From a virus (Duplodnaviria > Heunggongvirae > Uroviricota > Caudoviricetes): a stretch of DNA of 21,487 nucleotides. Each line of letters begins with the position of its first letter. Positions within the stretch are counted from its first letter, which is position 1. A program made the position numbers and the translations under genes. Of this stretch, positions 4,904 to 18,145 are shown one piece after another. The stretch is from positions 1-21,487 of IMG/VR virus record IMGVR_UViG_2703718857_000003; one strand, given 5' to 3'. The notes beneath the pieces are model-generated. The model saw nothing but the letters and a program-made list of their open reading frames with translations, did not search any database and was not told where the DNA came from.

Positions 4904-5412
4904 CAGATTTGACTCACGATGCAGCGCGGCTTGTCCTGGATGCGCGCCACTGCCCAGCGCATATCCCGCCACAGCTCATCAATGGTGCTGTCAATGCTGT
5001 CGGCCTTCTTGTCGCCCTTGGCACTGGCATCCACGCCGCGGTAACGCTCATAAAGCGACGCGGTCGCCATCGCACACACGGCGCGCTCGTAGTAAAAAAC
5101 TTTGATGCTTTCACCGTCGATGTCGTCCGCCGGAACGTCCGCCAGACGCGTAAAACCGGCGGCAATTGTCTGTTCGCGGTACTCGTACAGCTCCGCATTC
5201 GTCTCCGCCATGCCTGACTTGATGGCCTCACGCAGACGGGCGGGGGCGACGGTCTGCTCAAGGCGCATACGTTCCCGGACGCGCTTCGGGTCGATATCGG
5301 GAAAAAAGAACGTGTTTTTAATCACCGGCTCGTCGCCTGCCGGTTGCGGGATAACCACCGTACCCTCACCGGACACGGGAGCCTCCTTTCGCGGAATAAT
5401 CAGCGTCATCAT
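4903..5412 (-). CDS. L: Head completion/stabilisation protein L
   Basis: 169 aa from internal Met (MMTLIIP...), the length of P2 gpL; synteny M-L-X. Confidence 0.75.
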   Translation of the reverse strand: MMTLIIPRKEAPVSGEGTVVIPQPAGDEPVIKNTFFFPDIDPKRVRERMRLEQTVAPARLREAIKSGMAETNAELYEYREQTIAAGFTRLADVPADDIDGESIKVFYYERAVCAMATASLYERYRGVDASAKGDKKADSIDSTIDELWRDMRWAVARIQDKPRCIVSQI

Positions 5413-6258: not shown

Positions 6259-7332
6259 TTACGCTCCCGGCTCTGCGGTCGCCTTAGCCGGTGTGGAGAA
6301 ATCACCGACCTTAATTTTTTCCACCAGACAACCGGCGGCGTAGTCTTCCACCACGTAATCAATGTTCATTGACTCGTAGTTCTCCACGCGGTCGAGTTTC
6401 GGGTTTTCCTCAATCACGCGGCGATGGCTGTCATCCATGTAGTAGATGGACAGGTTTTCCAGCTTCGTGATGAGCATCGCATCCGCCGGGAAGTACGGGA
6501 CGCGTACCGCCGGCAGGTTACCGATGCGTTTCTGACTGATGATGACGTCAGCGGCCAGCATTTCGCTGTTGTCCTGCTCCTTGTTGACGATGGGGAAATA
6601 CTTGTCCGCCAGTAGCTGACGCCCCACAATCACCACAAGGTCAGGGTCTTCCTGATACCACGGCTCAATCAGGTTGTTGGTCGCATCCATCACCAGTGCA
6701 TCGAGGCTGGCATAATCACCGCCCTTACCCACGCGGATGACCTCAGAGGTCGTGTGACCTTCCTCGTCCGTAACCTTGCTCATCACGCGCGCCGGGGCTT
6801 CATTGCGGTATTTCTGCAGCCAGCCGACCGCCACATCCTGCAGCATCGGATTGCTGCTGCGGTCAGAGGTTTCTGCACGCTTCACACCGTTAAAACCGGC
6901 CATGATGAAATCAAGGGACTGGCGTTTGATAATGGCGTTACGGACACGGAGCTGGAAATCCTGATAACGCGCCCACAGGTCAAGCGTTTTGTAGCGGATA
7001 TAAAAATCGAAGTTAATCTGGTCGCATTCGTACTTGTTTGACGCCAGCTTCGAGAAGTCCTTCGGCTGACGCTCGGTGCCACCGGCGGTGTCGGTGGTGC
7101 TGGCGATGGAGCCGGTGACACCGATACCAATTTTTTCCCCTTTCATTTCGCTGACCGGCACAATGTTGATGCGGGTCAGAAAGTCAGAGGACTCCTGCAT
7201 GGTGTTCATCAGGGTCTGGGTGACCGACGGTTCAACGGTGAATTTTTTCGACACATCACCGGCGTCGATGCCGTTCAGTTCGGCAACACGGGACAGGTAA
7301 GCATTAAATTTAAAGCGGGTTTCCTGGCGCAT
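6259..7332 (-). CDS. N: Major capsid protein N
   Basis: 357-aa ORF, the length of P2 gpN; synteny O-N-M. Confidence 0.85.
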   Translation of the reverse strand: MRQETRFKFNAYLSRVAELNGIDAGDVSKKFTVEPSVTQTLMNTMQESSDFLTRINIVPVSEMKGEKIGIGVTGSIASTTDTAGGTERQPKDFSKLASNKYECDQINFDFYIRYKTLDLWARYQDFQLRVRNAIIKRQSLDFIMAGFNGVKRAETSDRSSNPMLQDVAVGWLQKYRNEAPARVMSKVTDEEGHTTSEVIRVGKGGDYASLDALVMDATNNLIEPWYQEDPDLVVIVGRQLLADKYFPIVNKEQDNSEMLAADVIISQKRIGNLPAVRVPYFPADAMLITKLENLSIYYMDDSHRRVIEENPKLDRVENYESMNIDYVVEDYAAGCLVEKIKVGDFSTPAKATAEPGA

Positions 7333-7390
7333 AGTTTTTCCTGAAATTAAGGGTTAATCGTGAAGGTTTTCCCGGACTGACTGACGCCGG

Positions 7391-10779: not shown

Positions 10780-11469
10780 TCAATCTTTAACTTCAATATA
10801 TGAAGAAGAAAACCATATAGATTTTTTCCCATTTATGTATTTAGAAACAGGCGAGCCATCTTCGTTCATTGCCTCAGCACTAAATGTTACATAATACATT
10901 CCTTTTTCTTTTGTCGAAACAAGATAGTTCAAGCGTCTTTCGGCAGAGATAGGAACGGATATATCATATAAAGGTATATTTTTAGCTTTTCCTTGCGAGC
11001 TACTTTCTTCATTAAGAACAGCCAACTCCTCATAATAATTTGGATAAAAAACTTCCGTAGCGACTTGCTTTGCACCGGCCGATAAAACACGACTAACAGC
11101 AAGGGACTTGTTATTAAGCTTCACATAAATTCGCTCATTACTGTTATTCCTAATAGTTACAATAGGCTTTATATAAAACACATCATCGATTTTAACAACA
11201 TTAACGTCAACATTAAAAAATGTCGATTCTGTATTTCTAATTCTATTTCTTAACTCTATAAGATCAGCTTCTGCCTTATCCCTTTGGTGCAAAACATCAA
11301 AAGTATATCCTCCCCACACAAGTGTCAAAACAGCGCACAATGACATCACGACGTTATTAAACTGATCGTGTGTTCTGTAAATATCTTTGAATTTTAAAAT
11401 TAATAATAGACATGCTATGAATAGCATGCCTATTATCAGCCAGTGTTCTTTTACAAATTCAAAGTTCAT
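10780..11469 (-). CDS. Uncharacterised membrane protein with two N-terminal TM helices and a beta-rich soluble C-terminal domain (cargo)
   Basis: 229-aa ORF; hydrophobic segments WLIIGMLFIACLLLIL and VVMSLCAVLTLVWGGYTF, then a Ser/Asn/Lys/Val/Tyr-rich soluble domain. AT-rich codon usage; start 2 nt after the stop of the upstream ORF. No family recognised by eye. Confidence 0.6.
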   Translation of the reverse strand: MNFEFVKEHWLIIGMLFIACLLLILKFKDIYRTHDQFNNVVMSLCAVLTLVWGGYTFDVLHQRDKAEADLIELRNRIRNTESTFFNVDVNVVKIDDVFYIKPIVTIRNNSNERIYVKLNNKSLAVSRVLSAGAKQVATEVFYPNYYEELAVLNEESSSQGKAKNIPLYDISVPISAERRLNYLVSTKEKGMYYVTFSAEAMNEDGSPVSKYINGKKSIWFSSSYIEVKD

Positions 11470-11471
11470 AG

Positions 11472-12554
11472 TTAGTCACTCGCATGCCTCGCATCACCAT
11501 CTTCAGGGAAATTGATCCCCTGTCCGATCTCACGGTTCGTTGGACGAGCAGAAACAAAGCCTCTATTTTGTCTTTTTAAACGCAACTCTAGAACTTGAGA
11601 AACTCTATCAAAGTTTAATCCATCCATTGCAACCTCTTTTTTCCCTTCAATATGAGATCGAAGTTCCTCACTTATACGATTATCAACCGTTGAAGCGAAG
11701 GCTACATCATGATTAAAAATGGCCCCCATAATTAACATAAACGCAATTCCGGCCTTTCTATTATTTGTTTTAAATTGTAGCCAAACATCCCCCGGAGACA
11801 TCAACATTTGTTGAGCAGTCAAGGATAACTCTCCATTATTAGAAAGTCTTTCCATCTCAAACTGAACAACTTCGTTTGTATACTCGCCATCAAACTCTTC
11901 GCCAATTAATAGCGCAAGTACCTGCACTCTATCGACCAGCTCAGCCAGCTGCTTAAGAGTATGATGCCGAATGGCTTCTGCTTGCTCGACTCTTAAGCTA
12001 GTACAGAAAATATTATCCGTTATAAAGAATGACATTAACCAATGCAGTACTTCTTCTGACTTCCCGCCCAAAGAGAATACGGTCTGGTATGCAGTAAACG
12101 ATTTCTGAAGAGCTAATGGAATCTCTCGTCTGCGAACTGGCTCTCCCCATGTGACTCTACGTCTTACATGAAACCCTTCATTATTACCTAAACATTCACG
12201 CTCAAAATACGCGGAAGATGCAATAACTCCAGGAACAACCATATCACCTGACAAAGTGAAAACAACATCACCGACCTGCATATCTATGAGGAAATTTTCA
12301 ATTTGGGTATGAATATTTCTTGAACCAATAGTATCTAACCCATCAACCTTTTGATTAATATTTTCATGGTTAATTTCATCATTAAAGTCAATTTGATCTG
12401 GACTTAACCTATCCAAGTGAGCAGTAGCAACCATATTGCGTTCAAGGAAGTCTGCAAAATATCTATACTTAATCCCAGGTCTAACGACCCAACACTTTAC
12501 ATTTAAATCAACATGTTGTACTGAAATAGCTCTTTGTGATGAAGTTCCAAGCAT
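11472..12554 (-). CDS. Uncharacterised soluble protein, first gene of the two-gene cargo operon
   Basis: Long AT-rich ORF; 361 aa from the first ATG at 12554, or 366 aa from the TTG at 12572. No Walker, HNH, DxD-nucleotidyltransferase or other motif recognised by eye. Confidence 0.55.
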   Translation of the reverse strand: MLGTSSQRAISVQHVDLNVKCWVVRPGIKYRYFADFLERNMVATAHLDRLSPDQIDFNDEINHENINQKVDGLDTIGSRNIHTQIENFLIDMQVGDVVFTLSGDMVVPGVIASSAYFERECLGNNEGFHVRRRVTWGEPVRRREIPLALQKSFTAYQTVFSLGGKSEEVLHWLMSFFITDNIFCTSLRVEQAEAIRHHTLKQLAELVDRVQVLALLIGEEFDGEYTNEVVQFEMERLSNNGELSLTAQQMLMSPGDVWLQFKTNNRKAGIAFMLIMGAIFNHDVAFASTVDNRISEELRSHIEGKKEVAMDGLNFDRVSQVLELRLKRQNRGFVSARPTNREIGQGINFPEDGDARHASD

Positions 12555-12778
12555 AGCTGATCCATAATTCAAAAAATTTTACGCATTTTACATATTTTTA
12601 TTTAAGACTCTAGAGCGTTAGGAATGATGAATCGCTTCAACAGATTATTTTTTGTGCAGATAGTGTGCTTAAACCAACTCATCGTAACGAAAGCACTCGC
12701 CTGAATCGTAAAGATAACATCTCATGACTCGATTCATAGGCTAATAGTATTATGCAATGGTCGTTAATGGAGCGCGCA

Positions 12779-12797
12779 GTGCTTTCCCCGCCTCGCC
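12779..12797. other. cos site: 19-nt cohesive-end sequence GGCGAGGCGGGGAAAGCAC (read on minus strand)
   Basis: Exact match, on the minus strand, to the 19-nt cohesive-end sequence as I recall it for phage P2 (not verified against a database). Followed towards the Q side by TGCGCGCT and then AT-rich cargo. A GC hairpin plus T-run (12797-12820) abuts it on the A side. Confidence 0.6.
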
Positions 12798-12939
12798 CGC
12801 CCGCTTCGTGGGGCGGTTTTAATGCAGATGCATTATGAGCCCTGAGCTGCGCCTAACGTGACACAGTTCACGAGAAAAATAGGAATTATCAAATGCAATT
12901 TCATGCAGATAGAGAGGCATGAGATCCCGAAGCTTATAT

Positions 12940-14292
12940 TCAACCCTCTGCCGAAATATTTCTTTGGAGAAATGCTCTAATTTTTTGCCTGAAAGCCTCA
13001 CATTCATCAGGCTTTAACCTCTCAAGGTATTCAAAAATCCTAGTTTCATCCCAGCCGTTGTTATAGGTTTTCACTACCCCTCGATAAACTTGCTTATCAA
13101 GTTTATCGTTACCTCTAGTTGTAACTCTCGGGATCGATTCATCTTGGCCGTATGCTTGATAGAAATCCTTCTCAACGCTTTGGAAAGGTATGCATAAAAT
13201 ATTTTCACCTCGAGCATACCTTTGACCTAATTGATCTCCGTCTAACACTGAGATCACATTCTGTTGAGTCGTGAGAAAGCTCTCTCTCTCATTACGACGC
13301 ATTAAATCAATGACATTAGTTCCTCCACCAACATATATTATTTTATATTCGTAGAAGTAATCATTCCCAGGAGCATTAATTATATATTCTAAGAAATTTT
13401 GCAGAACTTCATCTTCAGTAAGAATGTACTTATCCCATCCTTTAAATCCAAAAAGCGTACTTTTTATATAATTATATGATCGATTTGTAATTGTAGTTCC
13501 AGCATCACCTTCGCACATATAGTACAATTCATCATCATTCAGCGTTTGCATTAAAGCAAGTGAATGTGTTGTGAATACAATATTCACCGAGTGTCTCTGA
13601 CAATATTTCCTTAGCACTGCTATAAGATGGACTTGCGCCGAAGAGTCTAGTGATATATCTATCTCATCTATGACAATGAATTTTCTTTTGAGCTCAATCA
13701 TTCTAAATAAATTCAAAATAAAATACTCACCCGAGCTAAAGTAATCCTCCCTTATGTATGTTCCGTTCTCATTCAATCTGAAATAGAAAATTTCATTTTT
13801 TACAGAAAATGCTTTAAGATTATTGTAAGAAGAAGACTGATATACCTCATTGAGTATATTTATCAAATCCTCGGGAACGCTATAGCTTTCAAACGCAATA
13901 CTTTTTCTAAGTTCAGTATCAATTTTACTAAGTGTTGGGAAGTTATTGAACCTCATTCCATGAGGAATGGGCAACTCGACATAAAGATTGGATTTTATAT
14001 CTGCTGGAATTATTTGCTTAGTATCTATTACCTTCAAATTCTCATCATAGACATATACTATATCTTGATCATTAATATTATATACTATACTACTGTCAGG
14101 ATTGAATATATATCTAGAAGATGTCTTTATGAATGTATCTGCTGATTGTAAATTTTTAATTGCTTTGATTAGCGTTGTCTTTCCAGCACCGTTCTTTCCT
14201 ACAATGCAAGTCAGTTTATTTTCAGAAAGATCAATAGCAAATGACATATGTTCAACATGCTGGATTTTCGAGATCTCAATATTTATTTTCAT
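12940..14292 (-). CDS. OLD-family ABC-type ATPase with C-terminal Toprim-like domain (retron-associated effector candidate)
   Basis: 450 aa; Walker A GKNGAGKTT near the N-terminus, Walker B FIVIDEIDISLD, H-loop-like VFTTHS; C-terminal ILTEDEV and VLDGDQLG resemble the Toprim Glu and DxD motifs. Start ATG is 1 nt after the RT stop, indicating translational coupling. Confidence 0.7.
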   Translation of the reverse strand: MKINIEISKIQHVEHMSFAIDLSENKLTCIVGKNGAGKTTLIKAIKNLQSADTFIKTSSRYIFNPDSSIVYNINDQDIVYVYDENLKVIDTKQIIPADIKSNLYVELPIPHGMRFNNFPTLSKIDTELRKSIAFESYSVPEDLINILNEVYQSSSYNNLKAFSVKNEIFYFRLNENGTYIREDYFSSGEYFILNLFRMIELKRKFIVIDEIDISLDSSAQVHLIAVLRKYCQRHSVNIVFTTHSLALMQTLNDDELYYMCEGDAGTTITNRSYNYIKSTLFGFKGWDKYILTEDEVLQNFLEYIINAPGNDYFYEYKIIYVGGGTNVIDLMRRNERESFLTTQQNVISVLDGDQLGQRYARGENILCIPFQSVEKDFYQAYGQDESIPRVTTRGNDKLDKQVYRGVVKTYNNGWDETRIFEYLERLKPDECEAFRQKIRAFLQRNISAEG

Positions 14293-14293
14293 T

Positions 14294-15283
14294 TTAATTT
14301 ACATTCTTGTAAAAAAGCATATCGACAATCGTATTTCCGTATTTTCTCTTTAGCTTATCGAGATAACTCTTATCAATTGTGTTTATATGATTCAAAAGAC
14401 CAGAAACTGTATTAACGCCCTTTTCCAAGATCTCACTATCATTCAATCCGCTAGTTTTAACCTTAGGATCTTTTATTATAGAATCTATAAATTTATCTTT
14501 ATCCGTTACATAAAAATGAATCAAATGCTCAAGCTTTCTTTTTATTTTAATATCAACAGAGACTATCTGAGACGGTAAAATAACCATCCCCAGCAGCTTA
14601 ATCTTACTGCCTTTTTTAATCAATTTAGTTTTTGCTGAGTTTAGTTTGAAATGTCCCTTCCCAAACTCACCCAGCAGGTCACTTACTACAGAATGAATAT
14701 TCTCAAAGCCCTCATCATTTTCAGAGGAAATAATAATATCATCTGAATAGCGTGTGAATATATATTCATGGTTAATACAATATTGCTGCATCTCAACATC
14801 AAAGTCATATAAACATGCATTGCTGAAAGCTGGTGATGTCGGGAACCCTACAGGCAACGAATTATCGATAATAATATAATCTAAAATTTTATCCAAGTGT
14901 ATATTTAAATCGGAAATGGGAACGTTCGATAAGTTATCAACTAAAACTGATCGTGCATATTCACGAGTTATCGATGGGAAAAAGCTTTTAATATCAGTAT
15001 TGAAGAATATCTTACTACAGGCGTGAAGTTTTACTGCATCATAAGTGCTGCTTCCTTTTCTATACGAAAACACAACATCCTTATTTACTTTCAAGTATGA
15101 AAGAACAAATTCATTTATGAATTTGTGATACTCTTTTAGTTTAGAAGTGGGCTCAGCAATTAACCTTTCATCAAAGGTTATAAATTTAGTTTGTTGAAAT
15201 GGTTCAAACGAAAGAAAGTTTTGAAAGGAATCTTTTTCGAAGAATGCAATATTGAAGGCTTTTTCGAGACTAAGGGGTTTCAT
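14294..15283 (-). CDS. Retron-type reverse transcriptase
   Basis: 329 aa with RT motifs in order: NTDIKSFFPSI (domain 2), LPVGFPTSPAFSNA (domain 4), FTRYSDDIIIS (YxDD catalytic box). Motif order and spacing parallel retron Ec86 RT as I recall it (NIDLEDFFPSL / LPQGAPSSPKLANL / YTRYADDLTLS); size is typical of retron RTs. Confidence 0.8.
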   Translation of the reverse strand: MKPLSLEKAFNIAFFEKDSFQNFLSFEPFQQTKFITFDERLIAEPTSKLKEYHKFINEFVLSYLKVNKDVVFSYRKGSSTYDAVKLHACSKIFFNTDIKSFFPSITREYARSVLVDNLSNVPISDLNIHLDKILDYIIIDNSLPVGFPTSPAFSNACLYDFDVEMQQYCINHEYIFTRYSDDIIISSENDEGFENIHSVVSDLLGEFGKGHFKLNSAKTKLIKKGSKIKLLGMVILPSQIVSVDIKIKRKLEHLIHFYVTDKDKFIDSIIKDPKVKTSGLNDSEILEKGVNTVSGLLNHINTIDKSYLDKLKRKYGNTIVDMLFYKNVN

Positions 15284-15289
15284 CGTTGG

Positions 15290-15440
15290 CTGAGCTTTTG
15301 TTTTTTGAGTTGAATGGATTCTAAGATGAATGCTTTAACTCTCAGTCTTTCCTCACCCCAGACACCCTCCCTTCGCAGGCTTTACTTCTTGTACATACCT
15401 TCTCTCGAAAGAGAAGGCAGTACAAGAGCAACACTATATA
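15290..15440 (-). ncRNA. Candidate retron msr/msd non-coding RNA region (boundaries uncertain)
   Basis: Non-coding stretch immediately upstream of the RT containing a long interrupted hairpin at 15387-15427 (8-bp stem TCTTGTAC/GTACAAGA, internal loop, 7-bp stem CCTTCTC/GAGAAGG, loop TCGAAA), as expected for an msd stem. I could not identify a1/a2 flanking repeats by eye. Confidence 0.3.
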
Positions 15441-15456
15441 AAGGCCTGTAGAGGCC
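15441..15456 (-). terminator. Possible intrinsic terminator downstream of A (minus strand)
   Basis: 5-bp GC stem GGCCT/AGGCC with loop GTAG, followed on the minus strand by TTTATATA. The stem is short, and it could instead be part of the ncRNA. Confidence 0.25.
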
Positions 15457-15609
15457 AACATTTATGACTGGAGATGCTCCTAGTCGTTGGCATAAAAACA
15501 CTTTAAACCAGATTATGAGCATTTACAACATTTCAAGCCGTCGAACGCAGCCCCAATCAGAAAAGAACTCACACGGCCATCATAACATCATGATTTAGAT
15601 GGATATAAA

Positions 15610-17880
15610 TCACCCTTCATGCTTCACCCACTCGTCCGCTATCGGGTATACAAATCTTTTTTCGCCATAAACCACTATTCCGCCACGAGCCAGCGCCTGA
15701 AGTTCCCACCGCTGCGGCGTGATACCCTGCTGCGCCAGTTCGAAGCGGATGCGCGGAATCTGAGCCCTCTCGGCTTTTGTCATTCGCCCTGATGGTGCTA
15801 TCTGATGCGATTTTAATGGCTCATCGCTTCTTTGCTGTCGATTTTGCTGCGGCGCGCCGTGTTTTAATGCACTCCTGAGCACCGTCACAACTTCGGGGTC
15901 ATCCCATGCAATAACCCCATCATCGACAAGATTTAGCACCGCTGCGGCATGCTCAGACGGCGTAGGTGTCATAACTGGATCGCCACCGTCGGCAAGCTTT
16001 CCACAGTTATTGACAGGACTCCGAGGCGCGGCGATGCCGCTTTTTAAAGTCAAAGGCTCAACGACCGGAACTTTCGGCACAATGCGCCAGTCCGTCGTTC
16101 TGGTGATATGAATATGACGCGCGCCGAGATGCGGCGCGTAAATGCCGACCACTCTCTCGACTTCTTCCTCGTACTCGTTAACGTCATCCGACGGGCTACG
16201 GGCGACCCTGACAGTCTGACAATCGCGCGGGACATTTGCCCCGCCCTGCGCGCTGATATACAACGCAAAATCACCACTGTCTGCAGCGGCGCGTGCAGCC
16301 TCGACGCGCTCGTCAAACTCATCAGCAATGCTGACGCCGCGAGGCAATTTGCGTAGTTCACGGTAAGCCCCCATTGTCGGCAGACCAACCGTTTTAAATT
16401 GCGGAATGCGCCACGTTGACGCCCATGCGGTAACAGCCGCAGCAGTATCTTTCAGCGGCCTGCCGGTATCGTTATCGAGCTGACCATCCAGTGCATAGCC
16501 ATCGATGTTTTTTGAGATGTATTTCGCGATATACCCCGCAGCACCGCCCCGGTTAAGATGTTTTGCCTGAAAACGGTTTCGCGCGGCTCCTCTTTCGTCT
16601 CCATCCTCTTTGAGCGCGTAGCGACGCATGATTTCAATAATCTGGTTACGCTGGCGTGGATTACAAAAAAGCATCATATGCCAGTGCGGCGTTCCGTCGT
16701 GGTGTGGCTCGACGACACGCAAACCGTAGACCTGTAAATCATTATCCTTGAATGCCGTGCGCATCAGGCTCCAGATATGGCAGAGATAACGCTGCGCATC
16801 CTTTGGATTAAATGCCTCATCGTTCCAGCCGTGATTTAGCTGGACGGTTTTACTTTCGCCTTTTCTGACCTGACGTGTCGGGTGATACTTTGACGGCGCG
16901 GTCAGCGTGATAAACATCCCCACATCACCCTCTGCGGCGGCGTAACGCTCAATACCGGCGATGGTGTTCATCAGCTCCATCCGGCGAATTTCTGGATTAG
17001 AAATACTGCCCATCACCTTACTGATAAGGTCGATGCGCTCGCCGGTTTCCTTGTTTTCAAGGTCACACGATTTAAGAAATTCCAGATTTGCCTGGCGGCG
17101 CGCACGCACATCACGAATGGCATGTTTACTGGCATAAGGAGAACGGTCTTTATTGACCTCCCCGACAGCAATCAGTAACGCCTCATGCCAGCGCATACGC
17201 TGGCCTTTAAGCTGATGAGTCCACCACTCATCGTTAAACAGGCGGGCAATGGCAGAATATGCCTGCCTCGTGGTCATCTGCCCTTTACGGTATTTTTTCC
17301 AGTAAAGCGGGGAAATATTGAAAGCACGTGCAGCGCCAGCAACATGACCATAGAGGTGAGCCTGCGCCTCATCCGTAAACAGCGATTCTTTTTCGCCATG
17401 TGCATCAACCCAGGCATCGCAGAGTTCCTCATACATCATGAAAAGCTGCGATGAGATACGGGCAGCAAACTTTTTCAGCTCCTTGTCATTCATCCCCGGC
17501 AGGCGCGCATACTGGTCGCGCTCTGCCAGAAACAGCAACGACGCGTCGGTGTTCATTTCATGGCGCTGATTCACACGCTCAATGCGCGGCCATAAACGAC
17601 GCTGAAAAGTGGATGTGAGGAAATAAAACCCGTGCACCGGGCTTTTATTGCGCCGGATGTAGTCATAGCGTGAAGTAAACAGCGAGCGCAAAAAGTAAGG
17701 CAGGCGGTTAATCGTGGATAAAACACCTTGCACCTGACGCATCTCGTCACGTGTAAGGGGTCTTTCGCGCCCGACGGCCTCGCGTGGCGCGTTCCATGCA
17801 TAAGCACCGATAAACGCCTTACCGGTGCCTGCGGCAAATGCTGACGGAGGGACAAAACGCCCGGAGGCTTTAACGGCCAT
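15610..17880 (-). CDS. A: Replication initiation protein A (rolling-circle initiator, P2 gpA-like)
   Basis: 756 aa from the ATG at 17880 (MAVKASGRFVPPSAFAAGTGK...), close to the ~761 aa of P2 gpA; synteny B-small ORFs-A. The maximal ORF extends to 17922. Confidence 0.8.
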   Translation of the reverse strand: MAVKASGRFVPPSAFAAGTGKAFIGAYAWNAPREAVGRERPLTRDEMRQVQGVLSTINRLPYFLRSLFTSRYDYIRRNKSPVHGFYFLTSTFQRRLWPRIERVNQRHEMNTDASLLFLAERDQYARLPGMNDKELKKFAARISSQLFMMYEELCDAWVDAHGEKESLFTDEAQAHLYGHVAGAARAFNISPLYWKKYRKGQMTTRQAYSAIARLFNDEWWTHQLKGQRMRWHEALLIAVGEVNKDRSPYASKHAIRDVRARRQANLEFLKSCDLENKETGERIDLISKVMGSISNPEIRRMELMNTIAGIERYAAAEGDVGMFITLTAPSKYHPTRQVRKGESKTVQLNHGWNDEAFNPKDAQRYLCHIWSLMRTAFKDNDLQVYGLRVVEPHHDGTPHWHMMLFCNPRQRNQIIEIMRRYALKEDGDERGAARNRFQAKHLNRGGAAGYIAKYISKNIDGYALDGQLDNDTGRPLKDTAAAVTAWASTWRIPQFKTVGLPTMGAYRELRKLPRGVSIADEFDERVEAARAAADSGDFALYISAQGGANVPRDCQTVRVARSPSDDVNEYEEEVERVVGIYAPHLGARHIHITRTTDWRIVPKVPVVEPLTLKSGIAAPRSPVNNCGKLADGGDPVMTPTPSEHAAAVLNLVDDGVIAWDDPEVVTVLRSALKHGAPQQNRQQRSDEPLKSHQIAPSGRMTKAERAQIPRIRFELAQQGITPQRWELQALARGGIVVYGEKRFVYPIADEWVKHEG

Positions 17881-18145
17881 ATGAGCCAAAAGCCTCTGAA
17901 CAACGCTTGCTGAGTTGCTCAACCTGCGCGTTTAAATCAGCAAAAGACTTTGCGCTTCCGGTCAGAATATCGTGATGCATCAGGCCGGAAACGAGCTGGC
18001 TTAATTTCGGGTAATAACCAACCACCGCCAGCCATTCCTGACCGGCGTTTTTACCGCTTTCAGCTCTCTTTTTCTCGTGGAGAATAAACTGAAAGCTGTC
18101 ACTGGTAACGACATAACGTTCGCCAATTTCAATACGAATACTCAT
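17870..18145 (-). CDS. Small early-region protein (P2 orf83-position)
   Basis: 91-aa ORF tightly packed between A and the zinc-finger ORF, start overlapping the upstream stop. Confidence 0.5.
   Translation of the reverse strand: MSIRIEIGERYVVTSDSFQFILHEKKRAESGKNAGQEWLAVVGYYPKLSQLVSGLMHHDILTGSAKSFADLNAQVEQLSKRCSEAFGSYGR

Follow-up and report, generated by a model that had tools for sequence, protein, structure and literature searches.

Retron genes in the cargo slot of a P2-like prophage

What is the pair of adjoining genes, one for a reverse transcriptase (RT) and one for an ATPase, that a P2-like prophage carries in IMG/VR virus record IMGVR_UViG_2703718857_000003, and do the two genes make up the whole system? 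We analysed positions 1 to 21,487 of this record as a single stretch of 21,487 nt (the window), to which all coordinates refer. The pair very probably belongs to an intact three-part retron of subtype I-B1, carried by the prophage as accessory cargo. Its conserved parts are a structured non-coding RNA (ncRNA) of about 115 nt, the RT and a coupled effector with an ABC-ATPase and a Toprim-like domain, arranged on the minus strand in the order ncRNA, RT, effector. A preliminary description of the window had seen the two protein genes and overlooked the ncRNA. The protein genes are:

14294–15283, minus strand: retron reverse transcriptase of 329 amino acids (aa), with the YSDD catalytic box at residues 179–182 and a full-length match to a PADLOC RT_I-B model
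12940–14292, minus strand: effector of 450 aa, an ABC/SMC-type ATPase (residues 1 to about 278) followed by a Toprim-like acidic alpha/beta domain (residues about 279 to 450; E293, D351-G-D353, E374)

The motifs on which the preliminary description relied were all found where it had placed them: PTSP at residue 148 and YSDD at residue 179 of the RT, and Walker A (GKNGAGKTT at 32), Walker B (VIDEID at 207), TEDE (at 292) and DGD (at 351) in the effector. The coupling that it described is also there, as a single nucleotide between the RT stop codon and the effector start codon (TAA-A-ATG). We fetched 80 related loci of Gamma- and Betaproteobacteria from the RT alignment. An effector homologue lies downstream of the RT gene on the same strand in 80 of 80, and in 57 of the 61 loci where the spacing was measurable, the effector gene starts −4 to +6 nt from the RT stop. 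Because of this recurrent spacing, we regard tight coupling, probably translational, as a trait of the family.

The retron genes lie within an island of 29–42% GC (guanine plus cytosine) content at about 10.5–15.5 kb, and the surrounding P2-like prophage has 51–62% GC. Two features bound the slot that they occupy:

15610–17922, minus strand: P2 replication gene A, an open reading frame (ORF) of 770 aa
12779–12797, minus strand: P2 cos cohesive-end sequence, an exact 19/19 match to GGCGAGGCGGGGAAAGCAC

The chance expectation for an exact match to the 19-nt P2 cos sequence was 0.01 matches. The homologue of gene A in near-identical Escherichia coli prophages is labelled 'replication endonuclease' by RefSeq, and the retron is flanked in the window by P2 genes for structure and replication. 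The P2 reference genome has orf91 and the anti-phage genes tin and old in the stretch from A to cosR, with cosR following old. Since gene A and cos bound the present locus and the same P2 interval holds orf91, tin and old, the old/tin position proposed in the preliminary description is correct. The retron thus conforms to the definition of P2 old/tin hotspot cargo, namely variable, non-essential genes between gene A and cos or the portal gene of a P2-like prophage (Rousset et al. 2022). The same study reported retrons in this P2 defence hotspot, and its Table S5A lists 'RVT_1 + AAA_21', with the same RT accession, among the hotspot arrangements.

The reverse transcriptase

The preliminary description had called the RT retron-type and proposed comparing it with collections of retron and defence-associated RTs. 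Such comparisons favoured the retron lineage. All of the 25 top PADLOC matches were retron RT models, the best being RT_I-B (PDLC02937) over the full length with E=6.5e-110; 15 of 16 matches among the PDB sequences were retron RTs; and the best NCBIfam model was retron_St85_RT (177.6 bits, under its cut-off of 235 bits). Non-retron NCBIfam models scored far lower, at 45 bits for group II intron RTs, 41.7 for Drt3a and 40.4 for Drt2. On these scores, membership among AbiK, Abi-P2, group II intron or DRT enzymes was rejected. The RT also matched Pfam RVT_1 (E=8.2e-19) and PHROG 2825 (E=2e-92), and RT and effector each matched PHROG families over their full length. A chance match is excluded by the PADLOC values of the RT given above and of the effector (ATPase-Toprim_I-B, full length, E=3.3e-179).

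Indirect tests place the RT with clade 1, which is shared by subtypes I-A and II-A1, rather than with clade 3. The two PADLOC RT_I-B models differed strongly on this RT (365 versus 115 bits). Its scores against solved structures were 83 bits for 22et (labelled only 'Retron'), 74 for Ec78, 64 for Ec83 and 36 for Eco8. The difference between the two models, and the 64–74 bits to I-A RTs as against 36 bits to Eco8, argue that it is nearer to clade 1.

The motifs NAxxH and VTG are given as signatures of retron RTs (Mestre et al. 2020, Figure 1 legend). Neither is present in this RT: alignment to a solved retron RT showed AVKLH (residues 83–87, about 15023–15037 in the window) and LLG (residues 230–232, about 14588–14596) at those positions. 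A83, V84, H87, L231 and G232 are kept across the I-B1 RT family, and Mestre et al. place I-B1 RTs in retron clade 1. The two motifs are therefore a family-wide variant and not a defect of this copy.

A conserved structured RNA upstream of the reverse transcriptase gene

The third retron component, a conserved structured ncRNA, is encoded upstream of the RT gene at about 15379–15496. The 326 nt that separate gene A from the RT gene include a stretch that is near-invariant across enterobacterial and Photorhabdus loci, whose RTs are only about 57% identical. The ncRNA consists of these elements:

15420–15496, minus strand: conserved 5′ domain of the ncRNA, matched by a covariance model with 81.7 bits (E=1.3e-22)
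15466–15485, minus strand: hp1, a near-invariant hairpin, GACUAGGAGCAUCUCCAGUC, with the core GACUAGGAG-N3-CUCCAGUC
15486–15491 paired with 15454–15459, minus strand: outer stem P1 around hp1, in which GCCAAC pairs with GUUGGC, followed by the linker CCUCUAC
15379–15434, minus strand: long msd-like hairpin of variable sequence, 56 nt, predicted ΔG −28.2 kcal/mol

Covariation was tested on a MAFFT alignment of 55 loci that had not been fitted to any structure, and the covariance model was built from the same alignment. In this alignment 91.6% of cells were paired, compared with at most 45.8% in slid registers. Eight pairs were changed on both sides, with compensatory changes in all six pairs of P1, and the observed values were reached by none of 500 shuffles. 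The covariance model found exactly one match, always just upstream of the RT gene, in 80 of 81 sources. The sole source without a match was a locus (L043) whose effector gene is split.

In 79 of 80 loci, one long hairpin comes after the 5′ domain; the median values for this hairpin are 55 nt, 22 bp and −27.4 kcal/mol. The stem of this hairpin showed compensatory changes in an alignment of a subgroup of the loci. Retrons are expected to have an adjacent structured ncRNA with one or more short hairpins and a long stem-loop, and this is what was found here. When the entire window was compared with Rfam at E≤1, nothing matched, which places the ncRNA outside Rfam.

A second predicted hairpin, rich in G-U pairs, lies between the ncRNA and the RT start at 15316–15367 on the minus strand. 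It is common to the window and to an Erwinia and a Kluyvera locus (L002 and L003); Photorhabdus lacks 21 consecutive nt of it. A promoter-like site (15345–15318, 9 of 12 matches), from which the RT and effector genes could be transcribed, overlaps this hairpin. This structured spacer between ncRNA and RT is a lineage-specific extra of the present copy.

Transcription and reverse transcription of the ncRNA

Seventeen of 80 loci, of which 15 are betaproteobacterial, have the ncRNA on the strand opposite to the RT gene, about 55–150 nt upstream of the RT start, and a single RT gene each (L019, L027, L030, L036, L042, L047, L055, L056, L062, L066, L068, L071, L074, L076, L078, L079 and L080). Being divergent from the RT gene, the ncRNA of these loci must be transcribed as a unit of its own, an unusual arrangement for a retron. 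In related loci, elements resembling promoters (TTGnnn...TAnnnT, or TGnTAnnnT as an extended −10 element) recur at a conserved position, about 7 nt ahead of the ncRNA 5′ end. The corresponding element of the window is:

15502–15536, minus strand: weak candidate promoter of the ncRNA, with TTGAAA/TTGTAA and CATAAT/TGgTTTAAA-like elements, tentatively read from the sequence

A consensus promoter scan of the window called no minus-strand promoter at 15502–15536. Judging from the conserved elements, the ncRNA probably has its own promoter.

Classical retron ncRNAs are closed by a terminal stem of a1/a2 repeats, with a branching G beside a2. We sought canonical a1/a2 repeats with an inverted-repeat tool, by hand, in minimum-free-energy folds of single sequences and with RNAalifold, and found only short, non-conserved stems closing the long hairpin. 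The one in the window is CAGGC/GCCUG; such stems are variable and not conserved in position across loci. For the subgroup of loci alignable over their full length, RNAalifold predicted P1 with hp1 and the long hairpin and no terminal stem, and conservation stopped a few nucleotides 3′ of the long hairpin. No invariant G residue lies outside hp1, and none was assigned as the branching G.

Two I-B1 retrons, Mestre-308 and Mestre-314, were tested in a preprint reporting a retron census (PMC10849725, supplement file 3, 'Retron Terminal 308' and 'Retron Terminal 314'). For Mestre-308, from Pseudomonas (Atopomonas) hussainii, the yield of reverse-transcribed DNA (RT-DNA) was given as '0 by PAGE' (polyacrylamide gel electrophoresis), yet an RT-DNA of 116 nt was recovered by sequencing (PMC10849725). 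By alignment, this RT-DNA corresponds to the reverse complement of an ncRNA segment that runs from just 3′ of the long hairpin to the 5′ strand of P1 and includes hp1; it covers the hairpin that corresponds to the one at 15379–15434 in the window. Alignment to the Mestre-308 ncRNA and RT-DNA allows a prediction for the window by homology only:

15380–15491, minus strand: predicted template of an RT-DNA of about 112 nt

For Mestre-314, from Burkholderia pseudomallei, the entry reads 'RTDNA: None' (PMC10849725). The ncRNA tested for Mestre-314 begins at CGGCTCTGCATC, a point downstream of the conserved P1/hp1 domain of related Burkholderia loci (for example, L013). Since the tested ncRNA starts downstream of hp1, the lack of RT-DNA is as expected if the 5′ domain is required, and the missing domain may explain the result.

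These observations raise the question of whether I-B1 'retrons', this one included, are classical producers of multicopy single-stranded DNA (msDNA) at all. The alternative is an RT system with an autonomous ncRNA of about 115 nt, encoded on either strand with its own promoter and without an a1/a2 stem. Such an ncRNA would be copied over its whole length, possibly in infected cells only, no 2′-5′ branched msDNA would form, and its complementary DNA (cDNA) would be an inducible signal rather than a constitutive sensor. The opposite-strand ncRNAs of the 17 single-RT loci, the promoter-like elements directly upstream of the ncRNA, the end of conservation at the hairpin base where no a1/a2 stem is predicted, and the Mestre-308 product, which was not seen on a gel and spans the whole ncRNA with hp1, all point this way. 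However, the census expressed RT and ncRNA only, and in a heterologous host, so that the low yield is possibly an artefact, and the linkage of the 5′ end cannot be read from the sequencing coverage. Furthermore, Mestre et al. (2020) call all their consensus ncRNAs canonical, IB1 included, and homology puts the RT firmly in retron clade 1. On balance we consider it rather unlikely that the system is non-canonical in this way, and the same doubt attaches to extending the idea to the whole subtype. If it were true, a different priming step, an infection-induced cDNA step, or both, would feed an OLD-like effector.

Subtype and comparison with known systems

Subtype I-B1 was defined by a clade 1 RT and the Toprim motif IV EDxxL, and I-B2 by a clade 3 RT and motif IV EGxxE (Mestre et al. 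2020). In a review of OLD nucleases, I-B2 has the effector upstream of the RT ('Class 3A', Retron-Eco8) and I-B1 has it downstream ('Class 3B'; PMC10568477). The window effector is encoded downstream of the RT and has E293-D-E-V-L297 as motif IV and the DxD residues D351-G-D353 as motif V, as I-B1 effectors do. We therefore assigned the locus to I-B1.

The closest comparison is with the I-B1 retron Mestre-308. Both loci have the order ncRNA, RT, ATPase-Toprim and share motif IV EDxxL and motif V DxD. Their ncRNAs have an identical hp1 (the same GACUAGGAG-N3-CUCCAGUC core), a covarying outer stem and then a long hairpin, so that the window ncRNA fits the IB1 family. The P. hussainii proteins are about 45% (RT) and about 50% (effector) identical to those of the window. 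There is no difference in kind, and the window locus is a member of the same group; its copy differs in being prophage cargo and in having the extra structured spacer.

Type I-A retrons such as Retron-Eco7/Ec78 and Retron-Eco4/Ec83 have a Septu-like PtuAB effector with a separate HNH nuclease, PtuB, whereas the nuclease-like domain here is fused to the ATPase as the Toprim-like domain. Their ncRNA belongs to family IA/IIA1 and not to IB1.

P2 Old, a Class 1 OLD protein, shares with the present effector the cargo position between gene A and cos, the two-domain plan of an ABC ATPase with a Toprim nuclease (here a Toprim-like domain), and an anti-phage role, which is probable here. Unlike the present effector, it is a stand-alone protein of 586 aa with no RT or ncRNA, and P2 old is transcribed opposite to gene A while the retron is co-oriented with A. 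In Gabija, GajA (a Class 2 OLD) has the helicase-like GajB as its partner, again without RT or ncRNA. PADLOC models of GajA matched the effector weakly (E=5.5e-10 for the full length), and 1 of 19 C-terminal domains was matched.

Proposed mechanism and the Retron-Eco8 model

The preliminary description had compared the locus with Retron-Eco8. The likeness holds for the overall architecture, in that both are three-part systems of RT, ncRNA and an ABC-ATPase effector with a Toprim or Toprim-like domain, and Eco8 is the best mechanistic model available. It does not hold for the subtype. The features of Eco8 and I-B2, namely an effector upstream of a clade 3 RT with motif IV EGxxE, were not found here: the effector is downstream, the RT is of another clade and motif IV is EDEVL. 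Membership in the Eco8 group was therefore rejected, with the RT at 36 bits and no effector match at E≤0.001.

In Eco8, RT, msDNA and OLD form a 4:4:4 complex that is autoinhibited until the SSB of the phage (a protein that binds single-stranded DNA) binds the msdDNA; DNA degradation and abortive infection follow (PMC13402713, PMC12887533). The present locus probably acts as an anti-phage suicide system, and the following scheme is modelled on the mechanisms of Retron-Eco8 (I-B2) and Ec78/Ec83 (I-A). The RT would bind the ncRNA at its conserved 5′ hairpin domain, and reverse transcription would start just 3′ of the long hairpin. The resulting complex of RNA/cDNA and RT would bind the effector and keep it from acting. 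By binding or altering the cDNA, a phage factor might then release an ATP-dependent nuclease. The released OLD-like nuclease would destroy DNA and abort the infection, by which the lysogen population and the prophage would be protected.

A closer correspondence can be imagined, in which the locus is of the Eco8 (I-B2) type and works exactly as Eco8 does, with the same 4:4:4 assembly and with phage SSB on the msdDNA as the trigger. The shared three-part plan would suit such a reading. Sequence comparison makes it improbable. The RT scored 36 bits against the Eco8 RT but 64–83 bits against I-A-type RTs. The effector, with 450 aa against 738 aa in Eco8 OLD, had no sequence match to it at E≤0.001. 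Gene order is reversed, motif IV differs and the ncRNA has a different architecture. A retron of subtype I-B1 with an Eco8-like logic, in the looser sense given above, remains our preferred reading.

The effector and its C-terminal domain

The N-terminal part of the effector has the complete motif set of the OLD-family ABC ATPase. In addition to Walker A and Walker B, it has an ABC signature, SSGE, at residue 186 and an H-loop, TTHS, at residue 241, and it matched the Pfam families AAA_21, AAA_15, ABC_tran and SMC_N. Among 42 effector homologues, the residues of Walker A, signature, Walker B and H-loop were invariant, as were E293, D351-G-D353 and E374 in the C-terminal domain.

The preliminary description had called the C-terminus Toprim-like and proposed a comparison with OLD and GajA. 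The first point is supported by the full-length PADLOC match and by the acidic motifs. It is also supported by strand topology, since E293, D351, D353 and E374 stand at the C-terminal ends of strands beta-1 and beta-3 and just after beta-4, as in Toprim domains. In the comparison of folds, the best full-length match of the effector model was an OLD nuclease, followed by retron I-A PtuA and GajA; the link to GajA in the PADLOC models was the weak one given above. The phylogeny of Mestre et al. (2020) sets the I-B1 effector domain beside OLD Toprims.

Direct searches for the Toprim fold gave less. With the Pfam Toprim, OLD-like and DUF4435 models, full-length members of the family and their C-terminal domains gave no match except for one member at E=0.016. 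None of the distant effector relatives from an exhaustive profile search was matched by these models. A profile of the C-terminal domain had no match among PDB sequences, and an hhalign alignment to P2 Old was confined to the Walker B region (probability 55.8%). A Toprim fold is thus consistent with the motifs, the topology, the full-length fold match and the published phylogeny, but it was not independently confirmed by Pfam, PDB or hhalign.

Could the domain instead be a receiver-like regulatory or oligomerisation domain, with no Toprim nuclease and with toxicity that is driven by the ATPase or comes from a partner outside the locus? As Mg2+ is bound through acidic residues at these positions in receiver and in Toprim folds alike, we would expect cross-matches between them. 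The invariance of E293, D351, D353 and E374 at Toprim-type positions, the OLD nuclease as the best full-length fold match, and the place of the domain beside OLD Toprims in the published tree make a receiver-like domain highly improbable. We continue to read it as Toprim-like.

Only 160 cluster representatives of the C-terminal domain family were found at E≤0.001 in 1.84 billion proteins, which makes the family a very narrow one. In distant homologues the effector is better conserved than the RT of the same genomes (about 48–52% versus about 41–46% identity to the window proteins).

Distribution and integrity of the locus

Homologues of the RT and the effector are widespread in Gamma- and Betaproteobacteria. 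A RefSeq cluster of E. coli proteins shows 100% identity to the window RT. The 2.85-kb locus was found in 10 of 5,426 complete E. coli genomes, with 97.9–99.9% identity and always beside the P2 replication endonuclease gene. In a phage genome collection there was no copy of the retron, and only short cos-proximal matches were seen.

The locus without an ncRNA match, L043 (3977–7384), has its effector gene split into 4905–5261 and 6263–7384 by an insertion of about 1 kb with an ORF of 320 aa on the opposite strand. It was probably inactivated by a mobile element. That the window locus, too, has decayed or lost its function and is a passive passenger of the prophage, as its rarity in E. coli might suggest, is scarcely conceivable, since neither ORF is truncated and every catalytic residue is intact, the window ncRNA has the second-best score of 80, the E. 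coli copies are 97.9–99.9% identical over the full 2.85 kb, and L043, a truly disrupted relative, looks quite different.

The locus is already public and catalogued, and nothing about it is categorically new. It is present in RefSeq, in complete E. coli genomes and in the tables of Rousset et al. (2022), its subtype was defined in 2020, and detection tools recognise it; its novelty is accordingly low. In the literature we found no published defence assay, trigger or structure for I-B1. An intact, E. coli-derived, phage-borne copy would therefore be a convenient model for this functionally uncharacterised subtype. The coordinates of the ncRNA lead to predictions that can be tested: that the 5′ hairpin domain is essential, that the promoter is autonomous and that the cDNA is about 112 nt long.

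Neighbouring features around cos

Beyond cos, in the stretch up to the portal gene, there is a second low-GC cassette of two genes (10780–12572, minus strand):

11472–12572, minus strand: ORF of 366 aa, matching the PADLOC candidate family PDC-S02 (E=2.5e-12) and PHROG 10226; RefSeq 'DUF8426 domain-containing'
10780–11469, minus strand: ORF of 229 aa with a hydrophobic N-terminus (from the translation) and no family match

This cassette was found beside the portal gene in seven complete E. coli genomes, none of which carries the present retron; in one of them, Ec-U9-2, it occurs alongside a different system of an RT and a helix-turn-helix (HTH) protein. From these seven genomes, the two sides of cos seem to vary independently. 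The combination of cassette and retron seen in the window was absent from the complete-genome set. The cassette pair is entered in Table S5A of Rousset et al. (2022) as 'hypothetical + hypothetical'.

Directly beside cos, at 12797–12816 on the plus strand, there is a GC-rich palindrome followed by a run of T (CCGCCCGCTTCGTGGGGCGG TTTTAATGCA), which resembles a terminator. As positions 12800–12833 are identical in the P2-like phages P24C9 and 10W, the palindrome belongs to the conserved cos region and not to the retron.

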